Both the position numbers and the translations under genes were made by a program. Under the pieces are notes generated by a model. It was not told the DNA's origin, searched no databases, and saw only the letters and a list, made by a program, of their open reading frames with translations. This document shows positions 1 to 47,384 of a DNA stretch of 53,471 nucleotides, piece after piece; position 1 is the first letter of the stretch; the number at the start of each line of letters is the position of its first letter. This stretch comes from a virus (Duplodnaviria > Caudoviricetes). The DNA lies in IMG/VR virus record IMGVR_UViG_3300009169_000028, positions 1 through 53,471 of that record, one strand, 5' to 3'.

Positions 1-478
1 CAATCGCTCCGAGCTGCTGGGCGCCAATGGCCTTCCAGGTTTTTTTCTGGTCGCAGACGGCGAGCATGGCTTCGAGATTTTCTTGTGTGAGAGGGTCAAC
101 AGTTGGCTCGCCCGGGTCCGGCGGTTCGATGGCGCGCACGATGCTGGTTGTGAGAAAGCCTTCGTCAACCGCCCAGCGCCAGAGGGCGGAGAGGTCGGCA
201 TGGATGTTGAGGATGCTTTTGGGTGCGAGCTTGCAGGCCGGCCGGGGGGCAATTCCGCCCGGTATGGCGATGTAGTCCTCTCGGAGCCAGACGAAGAAGT
301 CGATGAGTTGAGTGCGGGTGATGTCGGCGATAGCTGGGTCCGGCGTTTCTTTGTCGACCAGGTAGGTGTGCAGTTTGGCGAAGCTGGTGCGGTAGTTGCG
401 CAGGGTGTAGGGGCTGCGGCCGGCAGCGATCTGGTAGTGGATGAAGCCGGCGATGGCTTGTCTGAGGGTGATGTTCAT
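1..478 (-). CDS. int: Phage integrase (tyrosine recombinase), N-terminal part, runs off the window start
   Basis: Not in the ORF track. Read manually: AAGGAG RBS, ATG at 478, MNITLRQAIAGFIHYQIAAGRSPYTLRNYRTSF...SILNIHADLSALWRWAVDEG...DPLTQENLEAMLAVCDQKKTWK. SAM-like core-binding domain, collinear with the integrase at the window end. Confidence 0.85.
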   Translation of the reverse strand, partial: MNITLRQAIAGFIHYQIAAGRSPYTLRNYRTSFAKLHTYLVDKETPDPAIADITRTQLIDFFVWLREDYIAIPGGIAPRPACKLAPKSILNIHADLSALWRWAVDEGFLTTSIVRAIEPPDPGEPTVDPLTQENLEAMLAVCDQKKTWKAIGAQQLGAI

Positions 479-507
479 CCGTGCTGTCTCCTTGTCGGTG
501 GGCGCTT

Positions 508-527
508 CCGATAATGAGGTCTTTCGG
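508..527 (-). repeat. Degenerate copy of the dispersed dif-like motif upstream of the integrase
   Basis: + strand CCGATAA-TGAGGT-CTTTCGG; one arm matches consensus, the other is variant. Confidence 0.4.
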
Positions 528-651
528 TTCCGAGTATCGGCGGAAGCGTTTTTTTTGACCCGACAGGGAGAATCAAGGTATGATATGTGCGGTCACCGGG
601 GAATGGTGTGTGACCGCACGGGTATGATTTGGGGGATCCGTGTGGATAAGA

Positions 652-698
652 TGGGCGGGGAGGGACTCGAACCCACGACCTCACGGATGTGAACCGTG
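652..698 (-). mobile_element. attP core: 3' half of tRNA-Val(CAC)
   Basis: Reverse complement reads CACGG-TTCACAT-CCGTG (anticodon arm, CAC), AGGTC, GTGGG-TTCGAGT-CCCTC (T arm), CCCGCCCA. No D arm or 5' acceptor strand. Adjacent to the integrase. Confidence 0.8.
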
Positions 699-826: not shown

Positions 827-846
827 CCGAGTAGTTGGGTTATGGG
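827..846 (+). repeat. Dispersed dif-like site 1
   Basis: CCGAGTA-GTTGGG-TTATGGG. Confidence 0.8.
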
Positions 847-855
847 TAGTGAATC

Positions 856-881
856 GGGCGCCGTGAGGCGCCCTTTTCTTT
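856..881 (+). terminator. Intrinsic terminator-like hairpin
   Basis: GGGCGCC-GTGA-GGCGCCC followed by TTTTCTTT. Confidence 0.65.
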
Positions 882-904
882 GTTGTCCGGATAGCGATCC
901 GTTG

Positions 905-1348: not shown

Positions 1349-1395
1349 TCGCCCTCCAAGCTTGAGCTGCAGGACGCGGAATAGGACATGGCGGT

Positions 1396-3054: not shown

Positions 3055-3068
3055 CACCGCAGTTGCTG

Positions 3069-3088
3069 CCGAGTACATGAGTTATAGG
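3069..3088 (+). repeat. Dispersed dif-like site 2
   Basis: CCGAGTA-CATGAG-TTATAGG. Confidence 0.8.
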
Positions 3089-5552: not shown

Positions 5553-5933
5553 TTATGCGGGCGTTGAGTTACGCCCCTCAATCGCCGCCAGAGTCATCTC
5601 CATCGCCCGCACCGTCAACGCCCGCTGACCCGCCTCCATCCCCCTGAGCCGGTCACTCCACGCGCGCACTTCCGGCAGTGGATCGCCCGCGCCCAGCTCC
5701 GGCGCCGGATCGTCCACCTCGCCGATCAGGTAGGCTACGGTTGTGCCAAGCGCGTGAGCGATGGCCTCCGCAACATCAAGCGTAGGCGAACCTTCACTTT
5801 TATTGTTGATGATTTCTGATAATGTGCTTGGCGATAAAGAAGGGCGAAACCGTTTAGCTTGAACGTGCAACTGTCCAAACGTCCAATTCTTCTTTTCTCG
5901 CAAGCAATCTACTCTGTCCCCCTGAATCCTCAT
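5553..5933 (-). CDS. XRE-family CI-like repressor
   Basis: LREKKNWT...LSPSTLSEIINN...PTLDVAEAIAHALGTTVAYLIG; divergent from a Cro-like gene. Confidence 0.85.
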   Translation of the reverse strand: MRIQGDRVDCLREKKNWTFGQLHVQAKRFRPSLSPSTLSEIINNKSEGSPTLDVAEAIAHALGTTVAYLIGEVDDPAPELGAGDPLPEVRAWSDRLRGMEAGQRALTVRAMEMTLAAIEGRNSTPA

Positions 5934-6130
5934 AGCTTCCTACTATATCGCAAATCGAACAACACACAATAGTTTTTCGTTTATTTCGTACCCCAACATA
6001 TCGAACAATCACACGATAGATCGTAAAATCTAACTCCGAATATGATGCAGATCATATTCGATTGTTTCGATAAATCGTATAGTACGAACAGGATTTACGA
6101 TTTATCGAAACAAGAGCAGGAGAGACACGC
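5934..6130. promoter_or_regulatory. Lysis/lysogeny switch region with operator repeats
   Basis: AT-rich divergent intergenic region; perfect 18-bp inverted repeat TTGTTTCGATAAATCGTA (6062..6079) / TACGATTTATCGAAACAA (6096..6113); additional TCGA/TCGT half-sites. Confidence 0.7.
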
Positions 6131-6343
6131 ATGACCGAACGGGAGCGCCTGGAACAGTTCATGGCCGAGAAGGGCTGGTCTTACAGCGACCTGGCCCACC
6201 GCCTCAAATGGTCGCCGACGTTCATCTTCGGCTTCCTCAGCGGCGCCTGGCCGGCGACGGAGCCGTTCCGCCAGCGGTTCGCCGAAGTCTTCGGCGCTGC
6301 AGCAGCGGCGCAGGTACTCGGTACTGAGGGGCAGCCCGCATGA
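6131..6343 (+). CDS. Cro-like HTH protein
   Basis: 70 aa, KGWSYSDLAHRLKWSPTFI; AGGAG RBS; first gene of the rightward operon. Confidence 0.75.
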   Translation: MTERERLEQFMAEKGWSYSDLAHRLKWSPTFIFGFLSGAWPATEPFRQRFAEVFGAAAAAQVLGTEGQPA

Positions 6344-6540
6344 ACGCTACCGACACCCCAAACATGACCTACACATTGCCCTTGGGTACGCATGTCACCC
6401 TCCATCCGGAACAGGCTGACGTGATCAGTGCTTTGCGAGCCGAGAATGCGACGTTGCGCCAGACGCTGATCGATGTGACCGGCCAGCGCGACGAGTTGCG
6501 CCAGCAGCTCGACCAGGCGCTGCGGGAGCGTGCCGCATGA
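6340..6540 (+). CDS. Small coiled-coil hypothetical protein
   Basis: ATGA overlaps on both sides; heptad pattern. Confidence 0.6.
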   Translation: MNATDTPNMTYTLPLGTHVTLHPEQADVISALRAENATLRQTLIDVTGQRDELRQQLDQALRERAA

Positions 6541-7037
6541 CCGCCTTTGCTGCAAGTGGCTGGGGCCTCCGCCGCTGGTTCCAGCTCTCCGGGTTCACCC
6601 GCTCGCGCGGGACGGATGCGTTCTGGTGTCGGGTGGAAAAGCGCCTCGACGCGGCGGCGTGCTGGCCGTGGAGCGGAGGGCAATCGGGTACGGGATACGG
6701 GTATCTGTATTGGCGGGGGCGCCGGCAGTATGCGCACCGGGTGGCGTGGGAGCTGGCCAACGGACAGCCGATTCCGCCGGGCATGTTGGTGCGCCATCAC
6801 TGCGACAACCCGCTGTGCTGCCGACCGAGTCATCTGGCGCTGGGACGGCATCGGGACAATATGCGGGACATGGCGCTACGCGGGCGGCGGGCCAGCTATC
6901 GGCTGTCGCCGGCTGCGGTGGTGATGATCCGCCAGAGCGATCGGCCATCGGCGCATTTGGCGGCGGAGTTGGGTGTGTCGCCGACGGCGATCCAGATGGT
7001 GCGGCGGCAGGAAGTCTATCGCAACGTGGAGGCATGA
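6537..7037 (+). CDS. HNH endonuclease with C-terminal HTH
   Basis: CWPWSG..YG....AHRVAWELANG.IPPGMLVRHHCDNPLCCRPSHL. Confidence 0.85.
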   Translation: MTAFAASGWGLRRWFQLSGFTRSRGTDAFWCRVEKRLDAAACWPWSGGQSGTGYGYLYWRGRRQYAHRVAWELANGQPIPPGMLVRHHCDNPLCCRPSHLALGRHRDNMRDMALRGRRASYRLSPAAVVMIRQSDRPSAHLAAELGVSPTAIQMVRRQEVYRNVEA

Positions 7038-8294: not shown

Positions 8295-8518
8295 GCACGG
8301 CGAAGCGGATCGGAGGCTATGTCTATCGACAAGAGGTGGCCCGGGTGCGCGCGGCGACGTCGTCGGCTCGGGGCTATGTGGAGCGCATTCTATCCGAGAA
8401 GCCAGGTCCGGCCTTGACAGCCTTGTACCTGGCGCATGTCGGCCTCGAGCTGGGGGTGATCAGCGAGGCGACTGCCGTTCTGGATGAGATCGGACGGGGA
8501 GCGGCGGCCTCGCAATGA
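8291..8518 (+). CDS. Hypothetical protein
   Basis: GTGA-coupled ORF, 75 aa. Confidence 0.5.
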   Translation: MSTAKRIGGYVYRQEVARVRAATSSARGYVERILSEKPGPALTALYLAHVGLELGVISEATAVLDEIGRGAAASQ

Positions 8519-8533
8519 CAGGGTGACCGGGTT

Positions 8534-8553
8534 CCTATAATGGGGATACCCGG
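8534..8553 (-). repeat. Dispersed dif-like site 3 (upstream of recombinase)
   Basis: + strand CCTATAA-TGGGGA-TACCCGG. Confidence 0.8.
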
Positions 8554-8573
8554 AAACAAGGGGGGGACTCATC

Positions 8574-9662
8574 ATGTATACCAGGCGGGAAACGGCAACG
8601 GTAGAGGATGTCGAGTTCCGGGTGGCGCCATCATCCGAATGGGAGGTCGTGGTGTCGGCCGGGGCGGAGGCGCCAGCCAGGGGACAGGGGGCAGGGGACA
8701 GGAGTCAGGGGACAGAGAATACGGCGCTCGTGCCGGCCGGCCTGGACATCGAGGGTATCCTGAATCTGTTCGATGAGTGGATGAAGCTGGACGTCGGCGA
8801 TGGCCGGGCGAGTCCGCTGACGCTGATCGCATATCGGAGCGATGTGCGGCAGCATCTCGTGTGGCTGGTGGAGCAGAGGAAGACGCCGGCGCAGGTGACG
8901 ACGTTCGACCTGAAGGCCTATAGAGCGCACCTGGTGGAGAGCTACCAGGTGTCAACCGTCGGGCGAAAGCTGGCCAGCATCCGGCGGTTTTATCAGATGG
9001 CGCAGGCGCACGGGATGCTGCCGGTGAATGCGAGCTACGGGCTGAAGAGTCCGGTCGATAAGACGGAGCAGAGCGAACGGATCAAGTATCTGACGCTGAT
9101 GTCGCTGAAGGCGTTGTTTGCGGCGACAGAGACGGCGAGCACGCCGGCGGCGCAGATCCGGGATAAGGCGATCATCGCGCTGATGGCCATCCACGGCCTC
9201 AGAGTGTGCGAGGTAAGCCGGCTGGACCTGACGGACGTGGATCTGGAGAAAGGCGAGGCCGGGGAGCTGGCCGCGCTGGGCAAGGGGGATAAGCGGCGGA
9301 GTGTGCTGTTGACGGATGACACCCGGCCGGCGTTGGAGAAGTGGTTGGCGGTGCGGCGGCTGATGCACGCCGACTCGCCGGCGCTCTTCCTGGCGCTGAG
9401 CGGGCCAGCGGAGCGGATTAGCACGCGCGGGCTGCGGGCGATGGTGGATCACTACCTGGTGAAGATCGGGGCCAAGAAGACGGGTGTTTCATGCCACGCG
9501 CTGCGGCACACGTATGCGACCCAGAGCCTGGCAGCCGGGGCGAGTCTGCTGGCGATCTCCGGGAGTATGGGACACAGCTCGGTGACGACGACGCAGGTCT
9601 ACGCTCAGATCGTGGACAAAGCCCGAAACAATCCGGCGAAGTTCTTAGTAGGGCTGTTATAG
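8574..9662 (+). CDS. XerC/XerD-like tyrosine recombinase (second, non-integrase recombinase)
   Basis: SAM-like domain (SPLTLIAYRSD, STVGRKLASIRRFY); catalytic RD..I.....HGLRVCE, GKGDKRR, HALRHT, GHSS, TTQVY. Confidence 0.92.
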   Translation: MYTRRETATVEDVEFRVAPSSEWEVVVSAGAEAPARGQGAGDRSQGTENTALVPAGLDIEGILNLFDEWMKLDVGDGRASPLTLIAYRSDVRQHLVWLVEQRKTPAQVTTFDLKAYRAHLVESYQVSTVGRKLASIRRFYQMAQAHGMLPVNASYGLKSPVDKTEQSERIKYLTLMSLKALFAATETASTPAAQIRDKAIIALMAIHGLRVCEVSRLDLTDVDLEKGEAGELAALGKGDKRRSVLLTDDTRPALEKWLAVRRLMHADSPALFLALSGPAERISTRGLRAMVDHYLVKIGAKKTGVSCHALRHTYATQSLAAGASLLAISGSMGHSSVTTTQVYAQIVDKARNNPAKFLVGLL

Positions 9663-9663
9663 G
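9644..9663 (+). repeat. Dispersed dif-like site 4 (overlaps recombinase stop codon)
   Basis: CTTAGTA-GGGCTG-TTATAGG. Confidence 0.7.
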
Positions 9664-9690
9664 TATTCTGCCGTCGAGGGTGATGCAAAT

Positions 9691-9975
9691 ATGAAAAGTA
9701 ATGAAATCGAGACCGCCGACGCTACGATTATCATTCAGTCGTGCGATAACGTTTCGGCGAATATCGGCGTTTTACACGGCGGAACAATAACCTATCGGCC
9801 TGTGGCCCTGCCATCCCTAAAACACGAATGGCACCGGGAACATTTGGCTTGCCTGGAACTGCCGATGGACAAGTTTGACGAAATCTTGCAGAGAAATAGG
9901 GCCGTGCTGCTGGAAACCATAGCCAGGCTAAACGTCCCAACAACGGATCCACCGTGCCGGCTGCGCCGGTGTTAG
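9691..9975 (+). CDS. Hypothetical protein
   Basis: 94-aa ORF, lower GC than flanks. Confidence 0.5.
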   Translation: MKSNEIETADATIIIQSCDNVSANIGVLHGGTITYRPVALPSLKHEWHREHLACLELPMDKFDEILQRNRAVLLETIARLNVPTTDPPCRLRRC

Positions 9976-9979
9976 ACGG

Positions 9980-10038
9980 AAAAAGGAACCGCCGACGGGA
10001 TCAGCGCCGGCGGGCCAGCGGGGGGGGACCTCGCTGGT
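9980..10038 (-). ncRNA. Candidate small antisense RNA with C-rich loop
   Basis: Extended -10 TGcTATAAT (10045..10053, minus), hairpin CCAGCG-AGGTCCCCCCC-CGCTGG, then a terminator hairpin and T-run. Confidence 0.4.
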
Positions 10039-10074
10039 GAGCTGATTATAGCATATCTCCACAGGGGGGGACAG

Positions 10075-10272
10075 ATGAGCGAAGAGCAGACAAGCTATCG
10101 GGTGTTCCGGCCGGAGCTGCCCCTGGCCGCCTGGGTGCGGGAGCAGCGGCAGCCGGTGGTCGTCCACCGCCAGGATCTGGCCGCGCTGCGGGAGGCTGGG
10201 GCGGCGAACGTGGTGGCGCTGCCGCATGGCGGGCCGCTGCGCGGCGAGGCGTGGGTCGAGGTGCGGGGATGA
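10075..10272 (+). CDS. Hypothetical protein
   Basis: G-rich RBS; 65 aa. Confidence 0.55.
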   Translation: MSEEQTSYRVFRPELPLAAWVREQRQPVVVHRQDLAALREAGAANVVALPHGGPLRGEAWVEVRG

Positions 10273-10658
10273 ACGATCAACCCAACAGCAGCGGCTCCAG
10301 CGCCGTCTGGGGCATCCTGGCCGGTATCGTGCTGATCATCGCCCTGATCGGCGGGAGCCTCTATCTGATCGGCGATCTGGGCGTGCAACGCGAGCGGGCA
10401 CGCGCTGAGCAGGAGAACGCCAGAGCGCAGGTCGAGACGGCGCGGGCTTATGCGCAGACGCAGATCGCCCAGGCTCAAGTCGAGATGGCACGGGCGCACG
10501 AAGAGGGATCGACAGAACGGATGCAGGTCTTCGCGCTGACGCTCAAGTCGCTGACCGCAGAAAACCAGATGACCATCACGCTGCTATCCGTGGGCGTGCT
10601 GATCCTCGGCATTCTGCAACTGGTCCAGACCCTCACCCGGCCGCGAGGTGGCGCATGA
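10269..10658 (+). CDS. Membrane protein with coiled coil
   Basis: TM - coiled coil - TM; ATGA coupling. Confidence 0.6.
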   Translation: MNDQPNSSGSSAVWGILAGIVLIIALIGGSLYLIGDLGVQRERARAEQENARAQVETARAYAQTQIAQAQVEMARAHEEGSTERMQVFALTLKSLTAENQMTITLLSVGVLILGILQLVQTLTRPRGGA

Positions 10659-10882
10659 CGACACAGAGACGCTACAGTCATTACACCTACACCATTACCA
10701 ACAAGGCCAGCATCGTGCTGCTGTGCGTTTTGCTGGTGGCTAGTGGATCGCTGTGGGTGCGCTACTGGGCCAGCATCCCGCCACCTATTGAGGATGCATT
10801 ACGGGTAGCCTGGTCTGTCTGGGCGCTGGCGTTTGTGATCCGACTGTTTGAGGCGCTGATCCGACGCTACGCAGTGAGGTAA
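10655..10882 (+). CDS. Small membrane protein
   Basis: Two hydrophobic segments. Confidence 0.55.
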   Translation: MTTQRRYSHYTYTITNKASIVLLCVLLVASGSLWVRYWASIPPPIEDALRVAWSVWALAFVIRLFEALIRRYAVR

Positions 10883-10884
10883 CC

Positions 10885-11571
10885 ATGAAGCAGTTCACTC
10901 AGACATTCGTGCCGCCGGCCCCAGCGCCGGCGCAAATGCCGGCACAGCAGCCACGGGAAGCGGCTTCGATCTGGATGAGCGGCGTCGTGGCGCCGTTCGT
11001 CCAGAACATCATCGGCGGGATCGGCGTGGCGGTCATTGCCGGCCTGATCGGTTTGGCGGTCGCGCCGGGCAATCCGGTGCTGGTAGGTAAGGCGGCCATG
11101 ATCGCCGGTGCGGTCGTGTTCGGCGGCTCCTGTGCGATCCGGGCGTTTCGGGATGAGATCGCGATGATTGTGGCGGCCTATGCCGATGGGCAGCGCGATG
11201 AAACGATCGAGGCGTTGCGGCGGGAGAACGGCCGGCTGCTGGCCGAGGTCGAGCGGCTGAAGGACGAGGGCATGGTGGCGCACGCCTGGGGAGCGCGCGA
11301 GGCGGCGGAGCGGCTGGTAACGAGCTATTTTGCCGCCGTGGCCGCCAACCAGGATGTGCGCGGCCATCTGGCCCGCGCCGAATCTATGCAGCGCGGTCTG
11401 AGCCGTGCTGCATGGGAGCAGGGCGTGCGATTCCTGCAGAATGCCGGCGTGCTCGATCGTGGCACGCTGCTGGCCGTCAGCGAGGAGGCGGCGTTAGCCG
11501 CCATCGCCCGGCACGCCGCCACGTCACGCGTCAGCGTGCGCGCCGCCAACGGCGACATGGCGAGATTGTAA
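10885..11571 (+). CDS. Membrane-anchored hypothetical protein
   Basis: GAGGT RBS; two TM then a coiled coil. Confidence 0.6.
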   Translation: MKQFTQTFVPPAPAPAQMPAQQPREAASIWMSGVVAPFVQNIIGGIGVAVIAGLIGLAVAPGNPVLVGKAAMIAGAVVFGGSCAIRAFRDEIAMIVAAYADGQRDETIEALRRENGRLLAEVERLKDEGMVAHAWGAREAAERLVTSYFAAVAANQDVRGHLARAESMQRGLSRAAWEQGVRFLQNAGVLDRGTLLAVSEEAALAAIARHAATSRVSVRAANGDMARL

Positions 11572-11672
11572 GTTATGTCGAATCATGACCGGGAAGTGGG
11601 ATCGGGATCATCCCAGCCCGGCAAAATGACCCCCTTCCCGCTCAGGCGGGGGAGGGGAGAGAGGAAGACGCA

Positions 11673-11936
11673 ATGAGCGGCATGGATCGCTACATTGATC
11701 TGGTTTACGGCGGTGTTACGCCGGATGCGCTCGACTACTACACCGGCCGCGCGCAGATGGCACACGCCGAACGGGATCGGCTGGCCATGCGAGCAGTTGA
11801 TGAGCAACTTGCTGCCGCGCGGCGTAAACAGGCGTGGGCCATCGGCGCACGGCGCCAGCTCGCCGAACTGTGGGCTGGGCTGACACCTGAAGAGCGCCAG
11901 GCCATCATACTGGAAGCGGAAACACTGTCACGATGA
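11673..11936 (+). CDS. Hypothetical protein
   Basis: RBS GAGGA; 87 aa. Confidence 0.55.
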   Translation: MSGMDRYIDLVYGGVTPDALDYYTGRAQMAHAERDRLAMRAVDEQLAAARRKQAWAIGARRQLAELWAGLTPEERQAIILEAETLSR

Positions 11937-11979
11937 ATAGTCATCACAAAGGGAAAAAAGGAAATAAAGGAACAAGCAC

Positions 11980-12354
11980 ATGAGCACCGAACTACTGACC
12001 CAACTCCAATCCCTGATCGCCGGCGCGGAGGCGAACCAGGTCGACGCCGACAAATGGCGCGCGTTGCTAGGCATGGTGGCTGATATGGGCTACGGCCCGC
12101 GTATCACGCCACAACAAATCGCCGATCTGCTGCCGAACGTACACGGCATAAACGAGATCGCCGGCTACTCCCAGGAGGTCGTCCCGGCGCAGCCGGCCGG
12201 CTCCAAAATGCCCAGACGCAAGCTCACACCCGAGGATGAGCACAATATCCGGATCCTGCAGGATCGGTTCTTCTCATCAGAGCAAATCGCCACAGAACTC
12301 GGGATCTCGCTTAAGGCCGTCGTCGCCTTCCTCGAACGTGTCGAGCGTGATTGA
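11980..12354 (+). CDS. HTH-containing protein
   Basis: C-terminal SSEQIATELGISLKAV. Confidence 0.6.
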   Translation: MSTELLTQLQSLIAGAEANQVDADKWRALLGMVADMGYGPRITPQQIADLLPNVHGINEIAGYSQEVVPAQPAGSKMPRRKLTPEDEHNIRILQDRFFSSEQIATELGISLKAVVAFLERVERD

Positions 12355-12679
12355 TTTTACCCACGCGCTGCGCCGGGCGGCGCAGCGCGTGCCGGGGCCG
12401 GTCGCCGAGCGCAGCCTGGCGCAGGCCAGGCCGATCCGACTCATGGCGGACTATCACGATGTGCCGCTGCCGGAGCCGATGGTGCGAGCCGGCCCGATGC
12501 GCCTCGGCGCCAGCGAGACCTGGTGTGCGCGCTGCGGGTGCGAAGGCTTTATGCCGGAATCGACATCCGGCAATCGCTCGGCGCAGAAGTCCACGGCTAC
12601 CTGCATCCGTTGTGGCAGCACGAAGCTGGTACCGGCCACGGCGGTGCTGCGACCGGATGAGTATTACGTGGCGCAGTAG
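12347..12679 (+). CDS. Zn-ribbon hypothetical protein
   Basis: CARCGC...CIRCGS; GTG start overlapping previous gene. Confidence 0.5.
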   Translation: MIDFTHALRRAAQRVPGPVAERSLAQARPIRLMADYHDVPLPEPMVRAGPMRLGASETWCARCGCEGFMPESTSGNRSAQKSTATCIRCGSTKLVPATAVLRPDEYYVAQ

Positions 12680-12692
12680 TTTGCGCGCAAAC
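12679..12692. promoter_or_regulatory. parS-like palindrome copy 1
   Basis: GTTTGCGCGCAAAC immediately upstream of the ParB gene. Confidence 0.5.
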
Positions 12693-12705
12693 ACTGAGGT
12701 GTGTG

Positions 12706-14589
12706 ATGGCCGATTCCCTGTTTCTGCTGGAGCAGATCGACGACAATCCGTTCCAGACCCGGCAAACCTATGACGACGCCGGGATTGCCGAGTTGGCGGC
12801 GGACATCTATGCCCGGGGCCTGCTGCAACCGCCCGTCGGCCGCCTGGTAGACGGCCGGGTCCAGCTCGCCTTCGGCCATCGCCGGCTGCGGGCCTACCGG
12901 CACATCCGCACGCAGATAGATGCGATGGGCTGGAGCGCGATGCCGGTCAACGTGCAGACGCTGAGCGATGAGCAGATGGCGCTGGCAGCGTGGAGCGAGA
13001 ACGCGCAGCGCAAGGACATCACGGCGATCGAGGAGGCGACTGCGATCAAGCGGATGATGGACGGCTTCGGCTGGAGCCAGAGCGACATGGGCAGCAAGCT
13101 GGGCGTGGATCGCTCGACGGTGGCCAATAAGCTGCGGCTGCTGCGCTTGCCGGAGGAGGTGCAGGCACGCATTGCCGGCCGGGAGCTGAGCGAGCGCCAG
13201 GCCGTGGCGCTGCTGCCGCTCTACGAGCTGCCGAAGCCGGCGCTGAACAACGCCGACAAGGCTTACACTTTTCCACGACCGAAGGATGTGATCGAGAACG
13301 CCGGCGCAAAATCATCGGACCGCATCCGGGAGGACGTAGATAGGATTCTGCAGAACGCGACGTGGCGGCTCGATGTGCCGTGGTCCAATCATCCGTTCGG
13401 CGGAAATGGATTGCATGATCCGGTATGCGATAGCTGTGCTAAGCGGATGCGTTTCGAGAAGACGTTCCGCTGCCCACATCAGACCTGCTATGAGCGCAAG
13501 ACGACGCTGTGGGCGGCGCTGCGGGTGGCGTGGGCCAGCACGGCGATGGAGATCCCGGCGGCGCCGGTGGAACTGAGTTACGGCGAGTATGCGACGCTGG
13601 CGAACGTGCCGCAGCCGGACAAGGTGATCGAGAAACGCTGCGAGAATTTGCGGCTGCGTTGGGTCGGGGACGACCGCCATACGGTGACCCGGCTGCGGGT
13701 GGCTGAGTATCCCGACGTGGAGGTCATCTGTCTGCATGGGGAGGATGGCCGGTGCAAGTGCGCCAGCGCAGCGAAGGCCGCGGCGACGAAGGCGGATCCG
13801 GACGTCCAGGAGCAGAAGGCGATCGAGAAGCGGATCCAGACGGAGATCATCGAGCCGGCGCGGGCGGCGGTGCTGGCTGGCCTGGAGAGCGGGCACCTGG
13901 GCGTGTGGCGGGATATGACCAGGGCGATAGTCTACAATCTGCGGCTGCCGGATGACGCCGATCTGGACGCGATCCGGGTGGCATTGGCGAAGGGATTGGC
14001 CGAAAGACAAATCTACTACGGGTCGGACAAGTCCAACCTCGGAGCGGTGAAACAGGCTTACGAGGCGCGCTTGAAGAACCTGGGGCTTGCCGTGCCGTGG
14101 GATGTGCCGCCGGAGGAGAGTCTGCGCCGGCGCTACGAGCGCATCCAGCGCTGGGCGATCAATCAGGAGTGGTGGAAGTGGGATTACGAGACGAACCTGG
14201 AGGCGATCGCCGGCAACCAGGTCAACCTGGCGGCGCTGGCCACGGAGGCGGCAGCGCTGGGTGAGGCGGCGGGTGAGCTGCCGCTGTTGATCGGCGCGCT
14301 GCAGGGGCAGTTGGCCGAGCTAGAGCCCGTGGCGCGGGAGATCAATGCGCGGAGGCAGGCGGGCGGGAATTGGTGGTGCCGTCACGAGATGCCGAGAGTC
14401 CTCTGCAATGATCTGCTGACATTGGAGCCGGGCAGTCTGCATTTCGAGAAGATCCTGGGCGAGGCCGAGGCGATCCACGTGCGGTATGCGCTGATTTTTG
14501 CCAACGGGCTGGAGCGGATCCAGGCGTTGTGTGATCGGCGGATGGCGCTGGAGCCGGAGCGGGCCGGCGAGGCGTTTCCGGTGCTGTGA
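12706..14589 (+). CDS. ParB/RepB/Spo0J-family protein with long C-terminal extension
   Basis: NPFQTR, GLLQPP, FGHRRLRA, ENAQRKDI, HTH SQSDMGSKLGVDRSTVANKLRLL. Confidence 0.88.
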   Translation: MADSLFLLEQIDDNPFQTRQTYDDAGIAELAADIYARGLLQPPVGRLVDGRVQLAFGHRRLRAYRHIRTQIDAMGWSAMPVNVQTLSDEQMALAAWSENAQRKDITAIEEATAIKRMMDGFGWSQSDMGSKLGVDRSTVANKLRLLRLPEEVQARIAGRELSERQAVALLPLYELPKPALNNADKAYTFPRPKDVIENAGAKSSDRIREDVDRILQNATWRLDVPWSNHPFGGNGLHDPVCDSCAKRMRFEKTFRCPHQTCYERKTTLWAALRVAWASTAMEIPAAPVELSYGEYATLANVPQPDKVIEKRCENLRLRWVGDDRHTVTRLRVAEYPDVEVICLHGEDGRCKCASAAKAAATKADPDVQEQKAIEKRIQTEIIEPARAAVLAGLESGHLGVWRDMTRAIVYNLRLPDDADLDAIRVALAKGLAERQIYYGSDKSNLGAVKQAYEARLKNLGLAVPWDVPPEESLRRRYERIQRWAINQEWWKWDYETNLEAIAGNQVNLAALATEAAALGEAAGELPLLIGALQGQLAELEPVAREINARRQAGGNWWCRHEMPRVLCNDLLTLEPGSLHFEKILGEAEAIHVRYALIFANGLERIQALCDRRMALEPERAGEAFPVL

Positions 14590-14599
14590 GGAAGATGAT

Positions 14600-14893
14600 A
14601 TGTGCAAACATCCGAACGTGAAACTAACGATCTCATGGACGATTGACATGACCACTGAGGGGCCGGAGGTGCTCGACAGCCAGGTCCAGAAGGCGAGCCT
14701 GAGAGCAGTGGTGAATTGTCCTGATTGTGGCCTCATGGGCAACACCTACACAACGATGGGCGAACCGGGCGTACAAAAGTCCTGGCAGGATCGGTGGCCA
14801 AAGTGGTTGAGCAACCGGGTGCGGCAGTTGGCGAACGGAAACGCTTCGCTGCGGCAAGCAGTGCAGAGGTGTATGCCGGGGTTGGTAGAGTAG
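14600..14893 (+). CDS. Hypothetical protein
   Basis: GAGGA RBS; MCKHP...CPDCG. Confidence 0.55.
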   Translation: MCKHPNVKLTISWTIDMTTEGPEVLDSQVQKASLRAVVNCPDCGLMGNTYTTMGEPGVQKSWQDRWPKWLSNRVRQLANGNASLRQAVQRCMPGLVE

Positions 14894-14895
14894 TG

Positions 14896-14915
14896 CCGAG
14901 TACGGCAGTTATAGG
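14896..14915 (+). repeat. Dispersed dif-like site 5
   Basis: CCGAGTA-CGGCAG-TTATAGG. Confidence 0.8.
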
Positions 14916-14958
14916 TAATGCGATTGCGGCGCGCTGGGGCGCCTGGTGGGGGGACATC

Positions 14959-16245
14959 GTGCAACTTAGCAGAACACGGCAGCTTCAACTGATCGTCAAT
15001 TTTTTCAACGGTGTGCCGGCCGACCGGCAGTATCATCCGACGGACTTCGACCGGGACCTCGCCGAGGCGTGGCGCGAGCTGATGGGCTGGGAGCAACCTG
15101 AGCCGGGCGATGCGGAGATGGTCAAGGAGATCCGGACCGAGCTGGCACAGAAGGTGTTTGCATCGCTGCGCAATGGACGCCAGGTGTGGGAGGAGATCGC
15201 CGGGGCGCTCGATGCGGAGCCGGCGCATTACAAGTCGTTGGCGGAGATGGCATTCGAGCCGATCACCTGGCTGTGGGAGAACTGGCTACCGGTGGGAATG
15301 ATCTCGATGCTGGCGGCCAGGCCGGGGACGGGTAAGAGCCTGGTGGCGCTGGATCTGTGCCGGCGGATCATCGCCGGCGAGGGGTGGCCGGACGGCTCGA
15401 CGCAGACCCGGCCGGGGGCCTCGTGCATCTATGTGGATGCCGAGAACGTGCCGGCGATCCTCAATAAGCGTTCGGTTGAGTGGGAGCGCTGGGGTATGGA
15501 TCGCCGGCGCATCTATCCGGTGATCCCGGAGCAGGACCATGACATCGTGAACCTGGGCGATGATCATTATCGGAATCTGTTGTGGGGGATGGCCTGCAAG
15601 CTGAAGCCGGCGCTGATCGTAATAGATTCGCTGCGGGACATTCTGCCGGCCGGCGAATCGGCGGTGGAAGATGTGCGCTCGACGCTGGCCTTCTTGAGCA
15701 ATCTGGCGGTGCAGAACTGCGCGGCGGTGCTGATCGTTCACCACCTCCGCAAGGGGCAGCAGTCCGGCCAACTGGCGCTGATGGACAGCATCGATCTCGA
15801 CCAGGTGAGCGGGTCCGGTTACATCGGCGGGCGGGCGCGGGTGATCATGGGGCTGACGAAGGTGCAGACGGGGCCGGATCCCGACAAGAACGGGCCGCGC
15901 AAGTTGGAGATCGTCAAGACGAACCTGGGTGAGTATCCCGCCGACCTGGGGATCACGTTCGAGCGGATGCCGCCGGACGGGTTGAAGCTGACCTGGACGG
16001 GGCAGGCTCCCAAGCGTTACCAGGAGCCAACGCTGCGGGATGGGGCGGTCGAGTGGCTGCTGGCCTTTCTGGAGGACGCCGGTGAGCCGGTGTCCCCGAA
16101 GGCGGTGGTCGAGGCGGCCGAGGCGGCCGGGTTCAGCCGGGCGACGATCTACCGGGCGCGTGAGGAGTTGGGCGGCCAGATCGCCAACTCGAAGGGCCGT
16201 CAGCACCCACAGAACGCCTGGACGTTGACGGTAGCGGAAGAATAG
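14959..16245 (+). CDS. AAA-family ATPase / RepA-like replicative helicase
   Basis: ITWLWENWLP, Walker A AARPGTGKS, Walker B LIVIDS, HHLRK, C-terminal winged helix; GTG start inferred. Confidence 0.82.
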   Translation: MQLSRTRQLQLIVNFFNGVPADRQYHPTDFDRDLAEAWRELMGWEQPEPGDAEMVKEIRTELAQKVFASLRNGRQVWEEIAGALDAEPAHYKSLAEMAFEPITWLWENWLPVGMISMLAARPGTGKSLVALDLCRRIIAGEGWPDGSTQTRPGASCIYVDAENVPAILNKRSVEWERWGMDRRRIYPVIPEQDHDIVNLGDDHYRNLLWGMACKLKPALIVIDSLRDILPAGESAVEDVRSTLAFLSNLAVQNCAAVLIVHHLRKGQQSGQLALMDSIDLDQVSGSGYIGGRARVIMGLTKVQTGPDPDKNGPRKLEIVKTNLGEYPADLGITFERMPPDGLKLTWTGQAPKRYQEPTLRDGAVEWLLAFLEDAGEPVSPKAVVEAAEAAGFSRATIYRAREELGGQIANSKGRQHPQNAWTLTVAEE

Positions 16246-16504
16246 AGCGGGCGGGCGCCTGGTGGCGTAACCTTAAGCCGTCGCAAGTATATCAAGAGAT
16301 CACTATTTTAACACCCCTACCCCCTGATATAGCTAGAGTGGGTGAGACGGTGATATCTCTGCGATAGTCGGGACAGTTCAACGGGAGGCAGCGATGCGAC
16401 GATGATAGCGATCTCCTATCTGGTGATTTTGATTCTGGCGGGCAGTCTGTTGTACATCGTGATCGCCGGGGTGGGGCCCGGTTTGCGAGAGGGAAGGAAG
16501 AAGG

Positions 16505-16846
16505 ATGAAACGTCTAAACCCGGGCATGATCAGCCACAGCCTGTCGCTGTGCGGGATGAATGCGTATCGTGCGGTCATCCTGGAGATGGCCGAGCAGATC
16601 AACGCGCTTCAGGAAGCAGTCGAGGATCTGCAAGGGCTGGTGAGCGCCGAGATCATGGGCGGCCTGGCCAAGCCCAGCGAATTGCGGGAGGTCGTGGCGG
16701 AGCTGGCCAGGGGACAGGAGTCAGGAGACAGGGGTCAGGGGAACGGGCGCCAGCCATCAAGCATCCCGGACGGAACGGTAACGGGTAGCTCCTGGCTTCC
16801 GGATGATTGGGTGAAACAGTACACTGCTGCGGTGGACGGCGAGTGA
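16505..16846 (+). CDS. Hypothetical protein
   Basis: RBS AGGA; coiled coil; contains heptamer-repeat-encoded RGQESGDRGQG. Confidence 0.55.
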   Translation: MKRLNPGMISHSLSLCGMNAYRAVILEMAEQINALQEAVEDLQGLVSAEIMGGLAKPSELREVVAELARGQESGDRGQGNGRQPSSIPDGTVTGSSWLPDDWVKQYTAAVDGE

Positions 16847-17079: not shown

Positions 17080-17329
17080 TCGTAATCACAGGGCGAAGCG
17101 GCTGTCGGCGGACGAGTTTATCCGCATTTGGCAGGCAGCCGAGACGGTAGAGCAGGTTGCCGAGGAGACGGGGGCGCACTACACGGCAGTCCTAAGCCGG
17201 GCCCGGCGCTACCGGGAGCGCGGGGTACAGCTTCGGGAGTTGCAACGGAGCGTGCGGCCGCATAACTATGGCAACGACTGGGATGCGCTGCGGGCGTTGG
17301 CGGTCGAGCTGCGACCCGGTTCCGAGTAG
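17069..17329 (+). CDS. Small HTH-like protein
   Basis: EFIRIWQAAETVEQVAEETG...SRARRYRERGVQL. Confidence 0.6.
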   Translation: MGNNRNHRAKRLSADEFIRIWQAAETVEQVAEETGAHYTAVLSRARRYRERGVQLRELQRSVRPHNYGNDWDALRALAVELRPGSE

Positions 17330-17341
17330 GAATCTTATAGG
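17322..17341 (+). repeat. Dispersed dif-like site 6
   Basis: CCGAGTA-GGAATC-TTATAGG. Confidence 0.8.
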
Positions 17342-19076: not shown

Positions 19077-19838
19077 ATGCTGAAACCCTATCAGGTGCCA
19101 CACGAGTGCGAGTCGGCGGAGATCGCTGAGAAGCTGGCGGCGTTGACGCCGCGGCAACGGCGGGCGTTGCGGTCATATGTGTGGCAGGTCGAGTTGGGCG
19201 AGAAGTCGTTGACGGCATGGCTGGCGTCACCGCTGTGCCCGCTGGCGCGCTCGACGTGGTATGAGTTGCGCGACCGTTGGGAGTTTCAGGCTGCGCTGGA
19301 GGCTTACAAGCGGGCGGGTCTGGAATGGCAGATGAGCCAGGAGCGGCGGTCGGTGGAGTCAGCGCAGCGGAAGCTGCGGCTGGCGACGAGCGGGGCAGCC
19401 GAGCGGTTGGTGGAGCAGACAAATGCTGATATTGGCAATCTGTTCAAAGTGGTGGAGCGGTGGACCGATGATCCGCTGCCAAGCCAGGAGATCATCGGGG
19501 AGGAGGAGCGGGAGGTCACGGACAAGAGTGGGAAGACGCAGATGGTGCGCTTCTACCTGGTGCGGCAGGCGGTGGTAGATCTTAATCGGCTGAAGGACCC
19601 CAGTTATTCGAGATTGGTGAGGAAGTTCTCTGATTCTCCGCGCTCAGGGATCAGTATCGAGTTGTACGATGCGCAGGCGGCAGTGGTCAAGGTCTTGGAA
19701 GCGCAGGGGGTGCTGCGCCAGTCGGCGTTGGGACTGAATGTGGATCTGGGCGGGTTGACGGACGAGCAGTTGGAGCGGATTGCGGCAGGCGAGGATCCGT
19801 TGCAGGTGTTGGCGGGACAACGGATGGGGAACGGGTAG
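19077..19838 (+). CDS. Terminase small subunit-like protein (copy A)
   Basis: SIELYDAQAA..K motif and C-terminal NVDLGGLTDEQLERIAAGEDP typical of TerS. Confidence 0.6.
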   Translation: MLKPYQVPHECESAEIAEKLAALTPRQRRALRSYVWQVELGEKSLTAWLASPLCPLARSTWYELRDRWEFQAALEAYKRAGLEWQMSQERRSVESAQRKLRLATSGAAERLVEQTNADIGNLFKVVERWTDDPLPSQEIIGEEEREVTDKSGKTQMVRFYLVRQAVVDLNRLKDPSYSRLVRKFSDSPRSGISIELYDAQAAVVKVLEAQGVLRQSALGLNVDLGGLTDEQLERIAAGEDPLQVLAGQRMGNG

Positions 19839-19876: not shown

Positions 19877-19896
19877 CCGAGTATGCTTATTATCGG
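19877..19896 (+). repeat. Dispersed dif-like site 7
   Basis: CCGAGTA-TGCTTA-TTATCGG, 2 bp from the TerL stop. Confidence 0.8.
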
Positions 19897-24697: not shown

Positions 24698-24717
24698 CCC
24701 ATAATCTGTCTACCCGG
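24698..24717 (-). repeat. Dispersed dif-like site 8
   Basis: + strand CCCATAA-TCTGTC-TACCCGG. Confidence 0.8.
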
Positions 24718-27481: not shown

Positions 27482-27501
27482 CCGATAAGAGGTGTACTCG
27501 G
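27482..27501 (-). repeat. Dispersed dif-like site 9
   Basis: + strand CCGATAA-GAGGTG-TACTCGG. Confidence 0.8.
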
Positions 27502-30923: not shown

Positions 30924-30943
30924 CCGAGTATCTTCGTTATGGG
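30924..30943 (+). repeat. Dispersed dif-like site 10
   Basis: CCGAGTA-TCTTCG-TTATGGG. Confidence 0.8.
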
Positions 30944-33621: not shown

Positions 33622-33641
33622 CCGAGTAGTGTGATTATAGG
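33622..33641 (+). repeat. Dispersed dif-like site 11
   Basis: CCGAGTA-GTGTGA-TTATAGG. Confidence 0.8.
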
Positions 33642-33717: not shown

Positions 33718-34041
33718 ATGTTGAGCGCGGCGGACTGGACGCAGATGACGGCGGATTTGGCGGCGGTGCGCGGGGATAACCCGGTGAGCATCACGCTGCG
33801 CCGCGGGGCGACGACGGTGGCGGCGCAGACGGTGCGGGTGGCCAGGATTACTTCGGCGGCCGGGGCGGCCGGGGGGAATCGGTCGGAAGAGTACCGGGGA
33901 AGGGCAGTAATCCTGGGATCGACGACGCTGGACATTCAGGTGCAGGATCGGTTTACGATTGCGGGGGCGGTGTATCGGGTGACGATCGTGCGGCCGAACC
34001 GGCGCGCGGGGGTGATGGCTGAGGCGGAGATGGTGGAATGA
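33718..34041 (+). CDS. Head closure / stopper-like protein
   Basis: 107 aa; DIQVQDRFTIAGAVYRV. Confidence 0.6.
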   Translation: MLSAADWTQMTADLAAVRGDNPVSITLRRGATTVAAQTVRVARITSAAGAAGGNRSEEYRGRAVILGSTTLDIQVQDRFTIAGAVYRVTIVRPNRRAGVMAEAEMVE

Positions 34042-37072: not shown

Positions 37073-37092
37073 CCGAGTAGCGGCATTATGGG
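37073..37092 (+). repeat. Dispersed dif-like site 12
   Basis: CCGAGTA-GCGGCA-TTATGGG. Confidence 0.8.
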
Positions 37093-37109
37093 AATGGAGT
37101 CGGTGATGT

Positions 37110-37913
37110 ATGGGCGTGCTGGTGGTGGCTCCGAACCGGCCGGATTTGCCGAACGTAACGCAAGAAGCGGCGGCGGTGGTGAATGCGCTGGGCGGGCGCC
37201 TGCTGCAGGGGCCGGTGGCGGAACAGGATGTGCGCGACGCAGCCGCCGAGGGCGGCTTCGACGGGATCTGGTTCGCCACACATGCCGGGCTGACGCCGGA
37301 GGGGGAGGTGCGGGTGCAGCTCTCCTCGGAGCTGCTGAGCGAGGCGGCGGTGGTGGCGTATGTGGCGGCGTCGGGGGCGTCCTGGTGTTTTCTGAATACG
37401 TGCGGGTCCAACGTACTCGGGCTGCGCATCCTGGACGAGACGCCGGCGGATGTGATTTGCACGGTGAGCCCAAACCCGGACCCCACGGCGATGCGCACGG
37501 GCGTGCTGTTCGCCAGGCAGTTGGCGCTGTTGGGCGACCCACGGGCAGCCTATGAGCGGTCGAAACCGGGCGGGAATCGGCTTTACACGTACCTGGACAA
37601 CTACAGGCGGCGCGAGATGGCAGCGGTAAACAACAATCCAGCCGGCAATTTTGTGGGGTATCCGGCGTCAGACCGATTGCAGGCGACAATGGATGATATG
37701 CGGAAAGACATGGCAAAGGTCGGGGCAGACGTTGAGGTACTCAAATCACAGACGGCCCGGATCGAGACGCGCCAGCAGCGGATGGAGGACCGGCTCGATG
37801 AGATCGAGCGGGTTTTGCAGCCGGCGCCAACCTGGCAGACGTGGGCGATGTTGCTCTTCGGCTTGATCGCCTGTATCGGGATCGTGTTTTTGTTGATGCG
37901 CGCGGGGGGTTGA
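37110..37913 (+). CDS. CHAT (caspase-like) domain - coiled coil - TM protein
   Basis: LPNVTQEA, IWFATHAG (His), CFLNTCGS (Cys); coiled coil; C-terminal TM helix. Confidence 0.65.
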   Translation: MGVLVVAPNRPDLPNVTQEAAAVVNALGGRLLQGPVAEQDVRDAAAEGGFDGIWFATHAGLTPEGEVRVQLSSELLSEAAVVAYVAASGASWCFLNTCGSNVLGLRILDETPADVICTVSPNPDPTAMRTGVLFARQLALLGDPRAAYERSKPGGNRLYTYLDNYRRREMAAVNNNPAGNFVGYPASDRLQATMDDMRKDMAKVGADVEVLKSQTARIETRQQRMEDRLDEIERVLQPAPTWQTWAMLLFGLIACIGIVFLLMRAGG

Positions 37914-37916
37914 TCT

Positions 37917-38198
37917 ATGCCGATCGTTTACGCGCTGCTGTGCGGGATGCTGATCTACGTTGCGATCCTGGCGCTATTCGGGCGGCGGATGATCTGCAAT
38001 CGTTGGGCGCTGGCGGTGGGCAGCCTGTCGCTGGCGGTGTCGTTCGCGATGCTGGCGCTGAGCACGTCGGGGATCACCCGGCATGGGACACATACGCTGC
38101 TCACGCGGGCCGGTTTTATCGGGTACGGGGTGAGTCTGGCGGTGATCATCGGCTGGTATTGGCTGGCGGCCTGGCGGTCCAGGGGGCGCGCTGAGTGA
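37917..38198 (+). CDS. Small 3-TM membrane protein (holin-like)
   Basis: 93 aa, three hydrophobic helices, basic C-terminus. Confidence 0.6.
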   Translation: MPIVYALLCGMLIYVAILALFGRRMICNRWALAVGSLSLAVSFAMLALSTSGITRHGTHTLLTRAGFIGYGVSLAVIIGWYWLAAWRSRGRAE

Positions 38199-38201
38199 GT
38201 G

Positions 38202-38221
38202 CCGATAAGGGCGATACTGGG
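38202..38221 (-). repeat. Dispersed dif-like site 13
   Basis: + strand CCGATAA-GGGCGA-TACTGGG. Confidence 0.78.
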
Positions 38222-41973: not shown

Positions 41974-41993
41974 CCGGGTAGAGCCATTATAGG
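41974..41993 (+). repeat. Dispersed dif-like site 14
   Basis: CCGGGTA-GAGCCA-TTATAGG. Confidence 0.8.
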
Positions 41994-45410: not shown

Positions 45411-45430
45411 CCGGGTACGCACATTATAGG
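45411..45430 (+). repeat. Dispersed dif-like site 15
   Basis: CCGGGTA-CGCACA-TTATAGG. Confidence 0.8.
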
Positions 45431-47327: not shown

Positions 47328-47364
47328 CGCAGGAGACAGGGGACAGGGGTCAGGAGACAGAGTA

Positions 47365-47384
47365 CCTATAAGTTGAGTACTGGG
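47365..47384 (-). repeat. Dispersed dif-like site 16
   Basis: + strand CCTATAA-GTTGAG-TACTGGG. Confidence 0.78.

Follow-up and report, generated by a model that had tools for sequence, protein, structure and literature searches.

A gene for a Xer-like tyrosine recombinase, here called Rec, lies in virus record IMGVR_UViG_3300009169_000028 (Duplodnaviria; Caudoviricetes), with one copy of a short palindromic site in front of its start codon and another over its stop codon. The window analysed is the whole record, a single contig of 53,471 nt, and all coordinates given here are record positions. Further copies of the site are dispersed over the genome. These sites are palindromic and conserved, they are linked to Rec across otherwise unrelated phages, and they coincide with module junctions. 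From the comparative evidence set out below, Rec is the best candidate for the protein that would read the dispersed sites, which themselves behave as junctions between modules (Table 1).

A sequence-only reading of this locus had described an intact XerC/D-like gene with R, K, HxxR, H and Y motifs, and that description stands. Rec matches the Pfam families Phage_integrase (PF00589, 3.5e-27) and Phage_int_SAM_1 (PF02899, 1.7e-9), and the catalytic residues R210, K237, H308-x-x-R311, H334 and Y343 are all in place and invariant in 38 aligned homologues. With this catalytic set, the Phage_integrase fold and a SAM-like core-binding domain, Rec belongs to the tyrosine recombinase superfamily. Its best solved relatives are XerD (1a0p, 1.4e-23) and XerA (5hxy), and the XerH structure 5jjv matches at 3.7e-12. 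Against the NCBIfam models Rec scores 164 bits for XerC (cut-off 335), 149 for XerD (330), 146 for XerA (220) and 109 for XerS (267); with every score under its cut-off, Rec is Xer-like but outside every named equivalog. Similarly, it falls short of the integron-integrase models (70 bits, cut-off 265, and 30 bits, cut-off 435) and of the invertase models (42 and 33 bits, cut-offs 221-222). The predicted structure (mean pLDDT 64.7) places a helical core-binding domain at residues 59-145 and a catalytic domain at 165-350; residues 1-55 are modelled with low confidence, and the model speaks neither for nor against an extra DNA-binding domain. A homologue search with the Rec protein alone gave relatives at no more than 37% identity, and scans of metagenomes and genomes with the Rec alignment gave generic Xer genes at no more than 43% identity among the matches listed. 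Closer Rec homologues, of 55-90% identity, occur within a set of 120.

The gene order fits an early rightward operon: a Cro-like gene at 6131 opens a rightward block that continues with Rec, a ParB-like protein and an AAA_25 helicase. The same reading had placed Rec in the early lytic operon, where it might be expressed during replication, with co-infecting or resident genomes at hand, and might regulate itself through site 3. Rec is also, as had been proposed, distinct from the tRNA-targeting integrase (Int). Contigs of the independent runs X2 and X3 exit the phage at 697/698 into tRNA-like sequence, which marks an integrated prophage junction; from these exits and the conserved tRNA-like core beside the gene it follows that Int has an attP of its own. 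Its core arms are inverted (CACGG-N7-CCGTG) and unlike the dispersed motif. Int was considered as the binder of the dispersed sites and is unlikely in that role, given its own tRNA-like core and the ~12 residues ahead of its core-binding domain that would have to accommodate an arm-binding domain.

Table 1. Rec, the dispersed sites, the variable segments and the integrase region of the window.
Feature	Position	Strand	Remarks
Rec, Xer-like tyrosine recombinase, 362 aa	8574..9662	+	Pfam, PHROGs and NCBIfam matches
Motif copy	827..846	+	followed by GC hairpin and T tract; left border of methylase cassette
Motif copy	3069..3088	+	followed by hairpin; right border of methylase cassette
Site 3	8534..8553	-	full consensus (0 mismatches); 20 nt upstream of Rec ATG; left arm toward gene
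Site 4	9644..9663	+	degenerate (2 mismatches); over last codons and TAG stop (9660-9662) of Rec
Motif copy	14896..14915	+	spacer CGGCAG; upstream of AAA_25 helicase module
Motif copy	17322..17341	+	spacer GGAATC; downstream border of replication module
Motif copy	19877..19896	+	between convergent ends of ORF 19077..19838 and terminase gene
Motif copy	24698..24717	-	in divergent intergenic gap
Motif copy	27482..27501	-	spacer CACCTC
Motif copy	30924..30943	+	behind protease-capsid gene and its hairpin
Motif copy	33622..33641	+	1.1-kb extra segment in the relative G001 at this junction
Motif copy	37073..37092	+	spacer GCGGCA; left border of variable module
Motif copy	38202..38221	-	2 mismatches; 2 nt before ATG at 38224
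Motif copy	41974..41993	+	9 nt before tape-measure gene
Motif copy	45411..45430	+	5 nt before Dit-like gene; right arm overlaps ribosome-binding site
Motif copy	47365..47384	-	1 mismatch; 23 nt before ATG at 47408
Variable one-gene segment	9691..9975	+	right behind site 4; 94-aa ORF without family match
Two-gene segment	886..3063	-	unknown ORF and N6/N4 methylase fused to Mrr-like nuclease; between direct copies of site plus hairpin
Two-gene module	37093..38201	+	between inverted sites 37073(+) and 38202(-)
Int, 5' part	2..478	-	3' part at 52760-53470
tRNA-like attP core of Int	650..697	.	resembles 3' half of a tRNA; conserved next to int in relatives
Two direct half-sites	505..537	+	CTTCCGATAA and GTTCCGAGTA, 22 nt apart, then T8 tract; just upstream of integrase start

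The dispersed site and its linkage to Rec

At two mismatches or fewer, the motif CCGRGTA-N6-TTATRGG occurs 16 times in the window, where 0.44 copies are expected and 100 shuffles gave a maximum of 2. The full site is a 24-bp imperfect palindrome, TTCCGAGTA-N6-TTATNGGAA, with 9-bp arms around a variable 6-bp spacer. In an alignment of 40 copies with at most one mismatch, drawn from four phages, conservation extends to bases outside the search pattern: T stands at -1 and at 0 (32/40 each), and A stands at the mirror positions +21 (29/40) and +22 (35/40). No copy has A at position 8, and just 2/40 have T at position 13. The arms are symmetric at 7 of 9 positions, as are the unconstrained flanks, and one asymmetry is fixed, GT in the left arm against a mirrored TA in the right. 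Xer/dif-type sites such as dif, lox and pdif consist of two inverted arms with 6-8 bp between them, a layout that the dispersed site shares. Although the genome is 89% coding, 11 of the 16 sites lie wholly outside called genes, another four touch gene ends, and site 4 falls within the last codons of Rec. Ten are found no more than ~50 nt upstream of a start codon, the distance to the start ranges from 2 to 76 nt, and both orientations occur, in the order + + - + + + + - - + + + - + + - along the window.

The two sites beside Rec lie as the sequence-only reading had them, the first ending 20 nt before the ATG, the second over the stop codon, and the pair in opposite orientations. Rec closes with the codons TTC TTA GTA GGG CTG TTA TAG, encoding the conserved peptide FLVGLL. 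As TTA makes up 24 of the 1472 Leu codons in called genes (1.6%), the choice of rare codons here (TTA, GTA) means that site 4 is more than a by-product of the coding sequence; the Rec gene of the closest relative, G001, uses other codons at its end, yet also closes with TTA TAG G. The spacers of the pair differ (TCCCCA in site 3, GGGCTG in site 4), and the two are therefore unlikely to recombine with each other. An invertible Rec cassette or shufflon was ruled out, since the spacers differ, the orientation is unchanged in G001 and no inverted form turned up; a 1222-nt contig of run X2, from a sediment sample, spans 8508-9729 collinearly, and no strand-changing joint is among the contig joints listed. 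On the + strand, site 3 reads a perfect TATAAT at 8536-8541, 32 nt upstream of the Rec ATG (TATAAG in G001). A simple promoter scan found no matching -35 hexamer with this TATAAT, and no sigma-70-type promoter was called at site 3 or site 4.

It is highly improbable that the motif works at the level of RNA or transcription, be it as a phage promoter, a terminator or processing hairpin, or a start-associated translation signal. Such a role would suit the intergenic sites, which often stand near ribosome-binding sites, the right arm GGAA/GGAG overlapping the Shine-Dalgarno sequence at 41974 and 45411, and it would suit the related perfect palindromes with flanking, terminator-like A and T tracts in G005 and partly in G007, two more distant relatives. 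It sits poorly with the variable distance to the start codon and with the use of both orientations, and one probable orthologous site, before the 38224 homologues, is inverted between the window and the genome fragment G018 (5/6 spacer positions agree as reverse complement, which is only suggestive). Moreover, changes at positions 3/18 are not compensated, and the mismatches at positions 5-6/15-16 are conserved; by this pattern an RNA or DNA hairpin was ruled out. A T7-type phage-polymerase promoter, considered because the motif ends in TATAGG, was likewise ruled out, as the Pfam and PHROGs scans of the ORFs of the window contain no RNA polymerase or sigma factor and both orientations occur. 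Repressor stoperators were also ruled out: the CI-like gene 5553..5933 has no homologue in the motif-sharing G001, and the palindrome at 6037-6060 is unlike the motif. This palindrome has 10-bp arms (CGAATATGAT-GCAG-ATCATATTCG), lies between the CI-like and Cro-like genes and is a candidate immunity operator.

Relatives of the phage connect the site to Rec. A pattern scan of IMG/VR led to G001 (48 kb), a record with four exact motif copies, which has 15 copies at two mismatches, where controls gave 0. The two genomes are collinear, their Rec proteins share 84% identity, and in both the Rec gene stands between these two sites. Aligned close homologues served as the query of a further search, which led to G003, G004, G005, G006, G007 and G008, whose Rec is 58%, 55%, 40%, 37%, 32% and 32% identical to that of the window. 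G003 and G004 have the same motif with TTATCGG, in 11 and 4 copies. G007 has 10 sites of the variant CCGCKWA-N6-TTAGCGG (0 in shuffles), which is altered symmetrically in both arms, and G006 has 6 heterogeneous sites of the same layout. In the 72 kb of G005 there is one full site of the window type, beside Rec; its other palindromes resemble two-way terminators, and its isolated half-sites form no clear pattern. The Rec proteins fall into two clades, one with the window, G001, G003 and G004 and one with G007, G008 (73% identical to each other) and, more loosely, G006. The site variant tracks the clade, being CCGAGTA/TTATNGG in the first four and CCGCKWA/TTAGCGG in G007 and G008. A scan for the G007-type site yielded 32 stretches, about the chance number for 15 fixed bases and as such uninformative; a recombinase match was present in only 7 of the 23 records searched, and in G434 only did the match lie within ~150 nt.

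The remaining gene content of these phages is largely unshared. When 67 ORFs of the window were compared by tblastn with six records (Rec identity about 30-84%), only Rec, two integrase pieces and one ORF antisense to the integrase matched all six, and almost no further genes are common to the window and G003-G007. A site is found at the 3' end of the Rec gene, or of a two-gene operon, in 9 of the 11 homologue loci examined. It overlaps the end of the Rec ORF in the window, G001 and G005; it follows Rec by 8 nt in G007, by at most ~10 nt in the metagenome contig L114, by 63 nt in G004 and by at most ~88 nt in G008; and it lies directly behind the gene next to Rec in G003 and G006.

A counterpart of site 3 was seen only in the window and G001. 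The 3' site is thus the conserved one and the two-site bracket a lineage feature. The sequence-only reading had regarded Rec as a one-gene cassette bracketed by two sites. The bracket is real in the window and in its closest relative, but distant homologues keep the 3' site only; the idea of cassettes agrees with the modules that differ between relatives at sites (see below), and the two-site form of it is restricted to these two genomes. The central proposal of that reading, that Rec is the cognate enzyme of the dispersed sites, gains comparative support from the 9 of 11 loci, from Rec and the integrase alone being common to the six records and from the clade-following variant, and is qualified by the records G016 and G017, which have sites and lack Rec. 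These two are a weak case of the motif-rich phage without the gene that would speak against the proposal, while no motif-rich record spanning the Rec region is without Rec. The motif-rich fragments G012, G015, G018 and G020 are only 7-27% complete, and the absence of Rec from them is therefore uninformative.

The sites could instead be bound by a host Xer protein, another host protein or an unrecognised small phage protein, with Rec tied only to the adjacent copy; we consider this improbable. It would account for the well-formed sites of the Rec-less G016, G017 and G022, two of which (G016 and G022) share the spacer GTCAAC, and for the resemblance of the arms to the XerC-side arm of pdif sites (PMC13141974). 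It would leave unexplained that the site variant changes between phage lineages along with the Rec clade, and no other phage protein is common to all motif-bearing records. Furthermore, of 401 genomes in the phylum to which the best cellular Rec match belongs, 1 contains the motif (1 match, against 4 in controls), and the Thermoflexus metagenome-assembled genome (MAG) with this match contains 0 copies. No host-wide, REP-like repeat was thus found in this one phylum or in the MAG; the host of the phage may lie elsewhere.

Other elements also accompany Rec or the sites. A ParB-like gene lies directly 3' of Rec in G006 (6187-7002), and a ParA-like gene lies near the site in G022 (L336 8479-9279); partition-type functions accompany the Rec/site system, and the prophage may conceivably be plasmid-like. 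A second dispersed palindrome, AGACCTTTAGGGTCTGCGAGACCCTAAAGGTCT, occurs in G001 (L110-L112, pair counts 12-18) and has no copies in the window; it often adjoins dif-like sites, for example at G001rc 2738, 16391 and 28909.

Module borders and spacers

Blocks of homology between the window and G001 begin or stop at sites, and the block with Rec, 8528-9663, runs from site 3 to site 4. Eight of the 16 sites lie no more than 45 nt from a block edge, compared with 2.9 expected for random gene gaps (P=0.00035; permutation test with 20,000 draws over 60 gene gaps). Metagenome evidence, which consists of assembled contigs and carries no information for stretches of the window without contig cover, adds further joints. 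Directly behind site 4, the ORF 9691..9975 is missing in G001, and a contig of run X4 diverges exactly after 9663, the end of site 4, and has 39 other letters instead (joint from 9663 to 9981). The methylase/Mrr segment is absent from G001, which has one site there, and a contig of run X5 joins 877 to 3082. This accessory segment (905-3078 on the minus strand) resembles a defence or anti-defence cassette and is missing from a relative in run X5 as well as from G001.

Neither ORF of the 37093..38201 module is matched in G001 by tblastn, and the GCGGCA site there directly precedes the homologue of 38224; in G018 a different 2.3-kb insert replaces the module. The spacer GCGGCA is thus common to the window, G001 and G018 and is followed by three different contents. 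Similarly, between the CGGCAG and GGAATC sites the window has the AAA_25 helicase and G001 a Toprim primase-like gene, and in G016, a Rec-less provirus, two direct sites with the spacer GTCAAC flank a 755-aa Prim-Pol/D5 primase-helicase gene (L334 4440-7272). Inverted sites enclose just the Rec gene and the 37093-38201 module. The genome has several sites per replicon that bound discrete modules, as in the dif modules of Acinetobacter, and lacks the inversely oriented, alternating C/D modules of that type.

The spacers carry a signal of their own. Across records, 9 of 2233 site pairs (71 sites, 18 records) have identical spacers, whereas column shuffling gave a mean of 1.27 and a maximum of 6 in 300 rounds, and identical spacers at syntenic junctions flank different modules. 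The 60-nt flanks of several identical-spacer pairs have identities of 0.50-0.68, compared with a mean of 0.55 and a maximum of 0.68 for unrelated flanks; for sites inside homologous DNA, spacers match at 2-5 of 6 positions. For example, G001 and the window (at 17322) have the same 24-bp site (TTCCGAGTAGGAATCTTATAGGAA), the flanks of which show identities of 0.68 and 0.52, and the spacer of 14896 recurs in G001 before the unrelated Toprim primase-like gene. The spacer of 27482 is identical in G003 and agrees at 5/6 positions in G001, with unalignable flanks, and that of 19877 agrees with G003 at 5/6 positions. Some of the records are related, and shared descent therefore explains part of the excess; the matches between the window and G003 and between G016 and G022 occur without other nucleotide similarity, and G016 and the Rec-less G022 (one GTCAAC site, unrelated DNA) have no homology around the shared site. 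In G001, a homologue of the gene 33718..34041 is present twice (G001rc 16455.., 89% amino-acid identity; G001rc 25598.., 85.5% nucleotide identity), each copy preceded by its own site, with different spacers.

The most likely of the readings considered, which we place slightly short of even, has Rec as the cognate enzyme of a phage-borne counterpart to the dif modules of Acinetobacter. We infer Rec binding, strand exchange at the sites and the use of spacers as addresses. One Rec monomer would bind each 9-bp arm, and cleavage would fall at the edges of the 6-bp spacer, as in dif, lox and pdif. The sites in short gaps would split the genome into modules, the Rec gene being one of them. Because spacers differ within the genome, Rec would not be expected to cause deletions or inversions in the phage that encodes it. 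Where a co-infecting or resident relative has an identical spacer at the matching junction, the two genomes could recombine reciprocally there, and two such exchanges would swap a module, as has been proposed for the dif modules of Acinetobacter. The further step to self-encoded, address-coded module exchange, in which shared arms would provide recognition and junction-specific spacers would restrict crossover to the same junction of a relative, is doubtful.

A role in regulation must be weighed against this. The pair of half-sites, 21-22 nt apart, lies between int and the attP core in the window, G001, G003, G004 and G005 and is absent from the Rec-less G016, which points to a further action of the motif-binding protein, at the control region of int or at an attP arm. 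Rec, or Rec together with Int, may bind the sites mainly as operators, roadblocks or architectural elements, controlling int through the half-sites and its own gene through site 3. Strand exchange would then occur only at the site beside Rec, for dimer resolution or as a second attachment site, and the module junctions would be a by-product of conserved intergenic DNA. We regard this as rather unlikely. The distribution of the half-sites is consistent with it, and so are the position of site 3 close to the Rec ATG with its TATAAT, the 10 of 16 sites that stand shortly upstream of starts, and G005, which retains just one full site, beside Rec. On such a model, spacers should drift, yet identical ones persist between unalignable flanks. 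Regulation would also have to contend with sites in both orientations, between convergent genes (19877) and on the non-coding strand of leftward genes (827, 3069), and the fact that, to our knowledge, no tyrosine recombinase is known as a genome-wide regulator counts against it.

Several points weigh against Rec as the enzyme of a module-exchange system. No recombination product between two sites was observed in the assembled contigs, which are the only material of this kind. Neighbouring sites mostly share one orientation, unlike the alternating sites of dif modules. Conserved DNA between genes, whatever its function, would tend to mark module borders and could favour homologous exchange with no enzyme dedicated to it, and the half-sites before int fit a regulatory or architectural role better than crossover. 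As the comparison phages were retrieved via Rec, they contain it by construction, which does not apply to their lack of other shared genes. There is no site at the Rec-homologue loci L194 (the Thermoflexus MAG contig) and L115, and two nearly complete records, G016 (92%) with 2 good sites and G017 (89%) with 1, have an integrase homologue and no Rec. In addition, the contrast between spacers and flanks is subject to ascertainment bias, because where flanks are unrelated the spacers themselves helped to match the pairs; the surplus of identical spacers is free of that bias.

Genome context

The ends of the record overlap by 203 nt (1-203 and 53269-53471) at 88% identity, within the integrase gene. 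As the ends overlap inside one gene, the window is most likely a circularly closed assembly of a phage population. The imperfect overlap is probably due to two strain variants joined during assembly, and the right-end variant at positions 32-185 is carried by contigs of runs X2-X4. The gene content is that of a temperate siphovirus-like phage (Pfam scan of 67 and PHROGs scan of 60 candidate ORFs). The integrase spans both record ends, a leftward block holds a lysin-like gene and the CI-like repressor gene 5553..5933, and behind the early rightward genes come a leftward terminase block and a long rightward structural block. No tRNA genes were found in the window.

Among the structural genes, a 903-aa ORF (28135-30846) combines a prohead protease domain with a Gp23-like capsid domain, and an inverted repeat with 27-nt arms and CAGTTGT-type heptamers lies behind it at 30852-30915. 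Three ParB-like genes are present, at 12703-14589, 21759-22745 and 25664-26635. Tandem heptamers of the GGGGACA / GGAGTCA type occur at at least seven loci of the window, several of them inside ORFs (8659-8744, 16689-16760, 28434-28505, 29030-29115, 32822-32907, 41814-41899 and 47325-47382), and fall in the low-confidence N-terminal part of Rec and in the protease-capsid gene. Metagenome contigs slip or cross-join at these heptamers, for instance from 16741 to 16708 (back 34) and from 8712 to 16708. The heptamers of G003 differ in sequence (GTGAAAC type) and lie right behind the sites of that phage.

Comparison with known systems and implications

Several single-enzyme systems, such as XerS/difSL, XerH/difH and Cre/loxP of phage P1, have a palindromic target beside their own recombinase gene. 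Rec resembles them in being one tyrosine recombinase with a palindromic target next to its gene. In these systems a single site per replicon serves to resolve dimers or to circularise the DNA, whereas the window has 16 copies. Integrons offer a second comparison. Their attC sites are hairpins of 57-141 bp. The sites described here are 24-bp duplex palindromes, an attI/Pc platform is absent, and core phage genes belong to the modules. Integrons and attC-type sites have been reported in phage genomes (PMC9892861), and the likeness to these would be a tyrosine recombinase and repeated sites bounding gene cassettes in phages.

The closest parallel is with the dif modules of Acinetobacter plasmids. 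There, pdif sites have an 11-6-11 layout with arms such as ATTTCGGATAA / TTATGTTAAAT, modules have been exchanged for others from plasmid to plasmid, with little or no change in the spacers on either side, and inversions and deletions between pdif sites with the same spacer have been seen experimentally (PMC13141974). In both cases, a replicon is made up of small gene modules set apart by numerous dif-like sites with 6-bp spacers, some of these modules, including an essential-backbone one, lie between inversely oriented sites, and the pdif arms TTCGnATAA compare with phage arms TTCCGATAA. The differences are that the window is a phage with apparently its own single Xer-like enzyme, where Acinetobacter relies on the host XerC/XerD pair; that its arms are near-symmetric 9-mers, compared with distinct 11-bp XerC and XerD arms; and that its sites are mostly direct and involve core phage modules, the phage system being known from its sequence alone.

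Short repeats of mycobacteriophages were also compared. The start-associated sequences (SAS) of Cluster K are 13-bp, non-palindromic and in one orientation, 3-7 bp from start codons, and the stoperators of Cluster A are 13-bp asymmetric repressor sites (PMC3203893). Stoperators and SAS/ESAS resemble the present sites as short conserved intergenic repeats that are kept across relatives beside unrelated genes, with a function that is largely inferred. They differ from the site of the window, which is palindromic over 24 bp, occurs in both orientations and lies at no fixed distance from starts, and the repressor is not shared among the motif-bearing phages.

No description of a phage-encoded Xer-like recombinase with dispersed dif-like sites was found in the literature outside subscription journals. 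The mosaicism of phages at gene boundaries is usually explained by illegitimate recombination and selection or by relaxed homologous recombination. If Rec does act at the sites, a phage-encoded site-specific recombinase with its sites at module borders would be a third, directed route to mosaicism and would put the 'linker sequence' of the modular theory of phage evolution on an enzymatic footing. Should Rec instead be a regulator with 16 operators, this would be an unusual second career for a tyrosine recombinase. Under module exchange, the dif-module principle, so far known from Acinetobacter plasmids and the host XerC/XerD pair, would reach viruses with their own enzyme, and the same arms with different spacers would amount to an orthogonal set of recombination sites. 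Replication, structural and accessory modules would then be swappable between relatives without scrambling the gene order.

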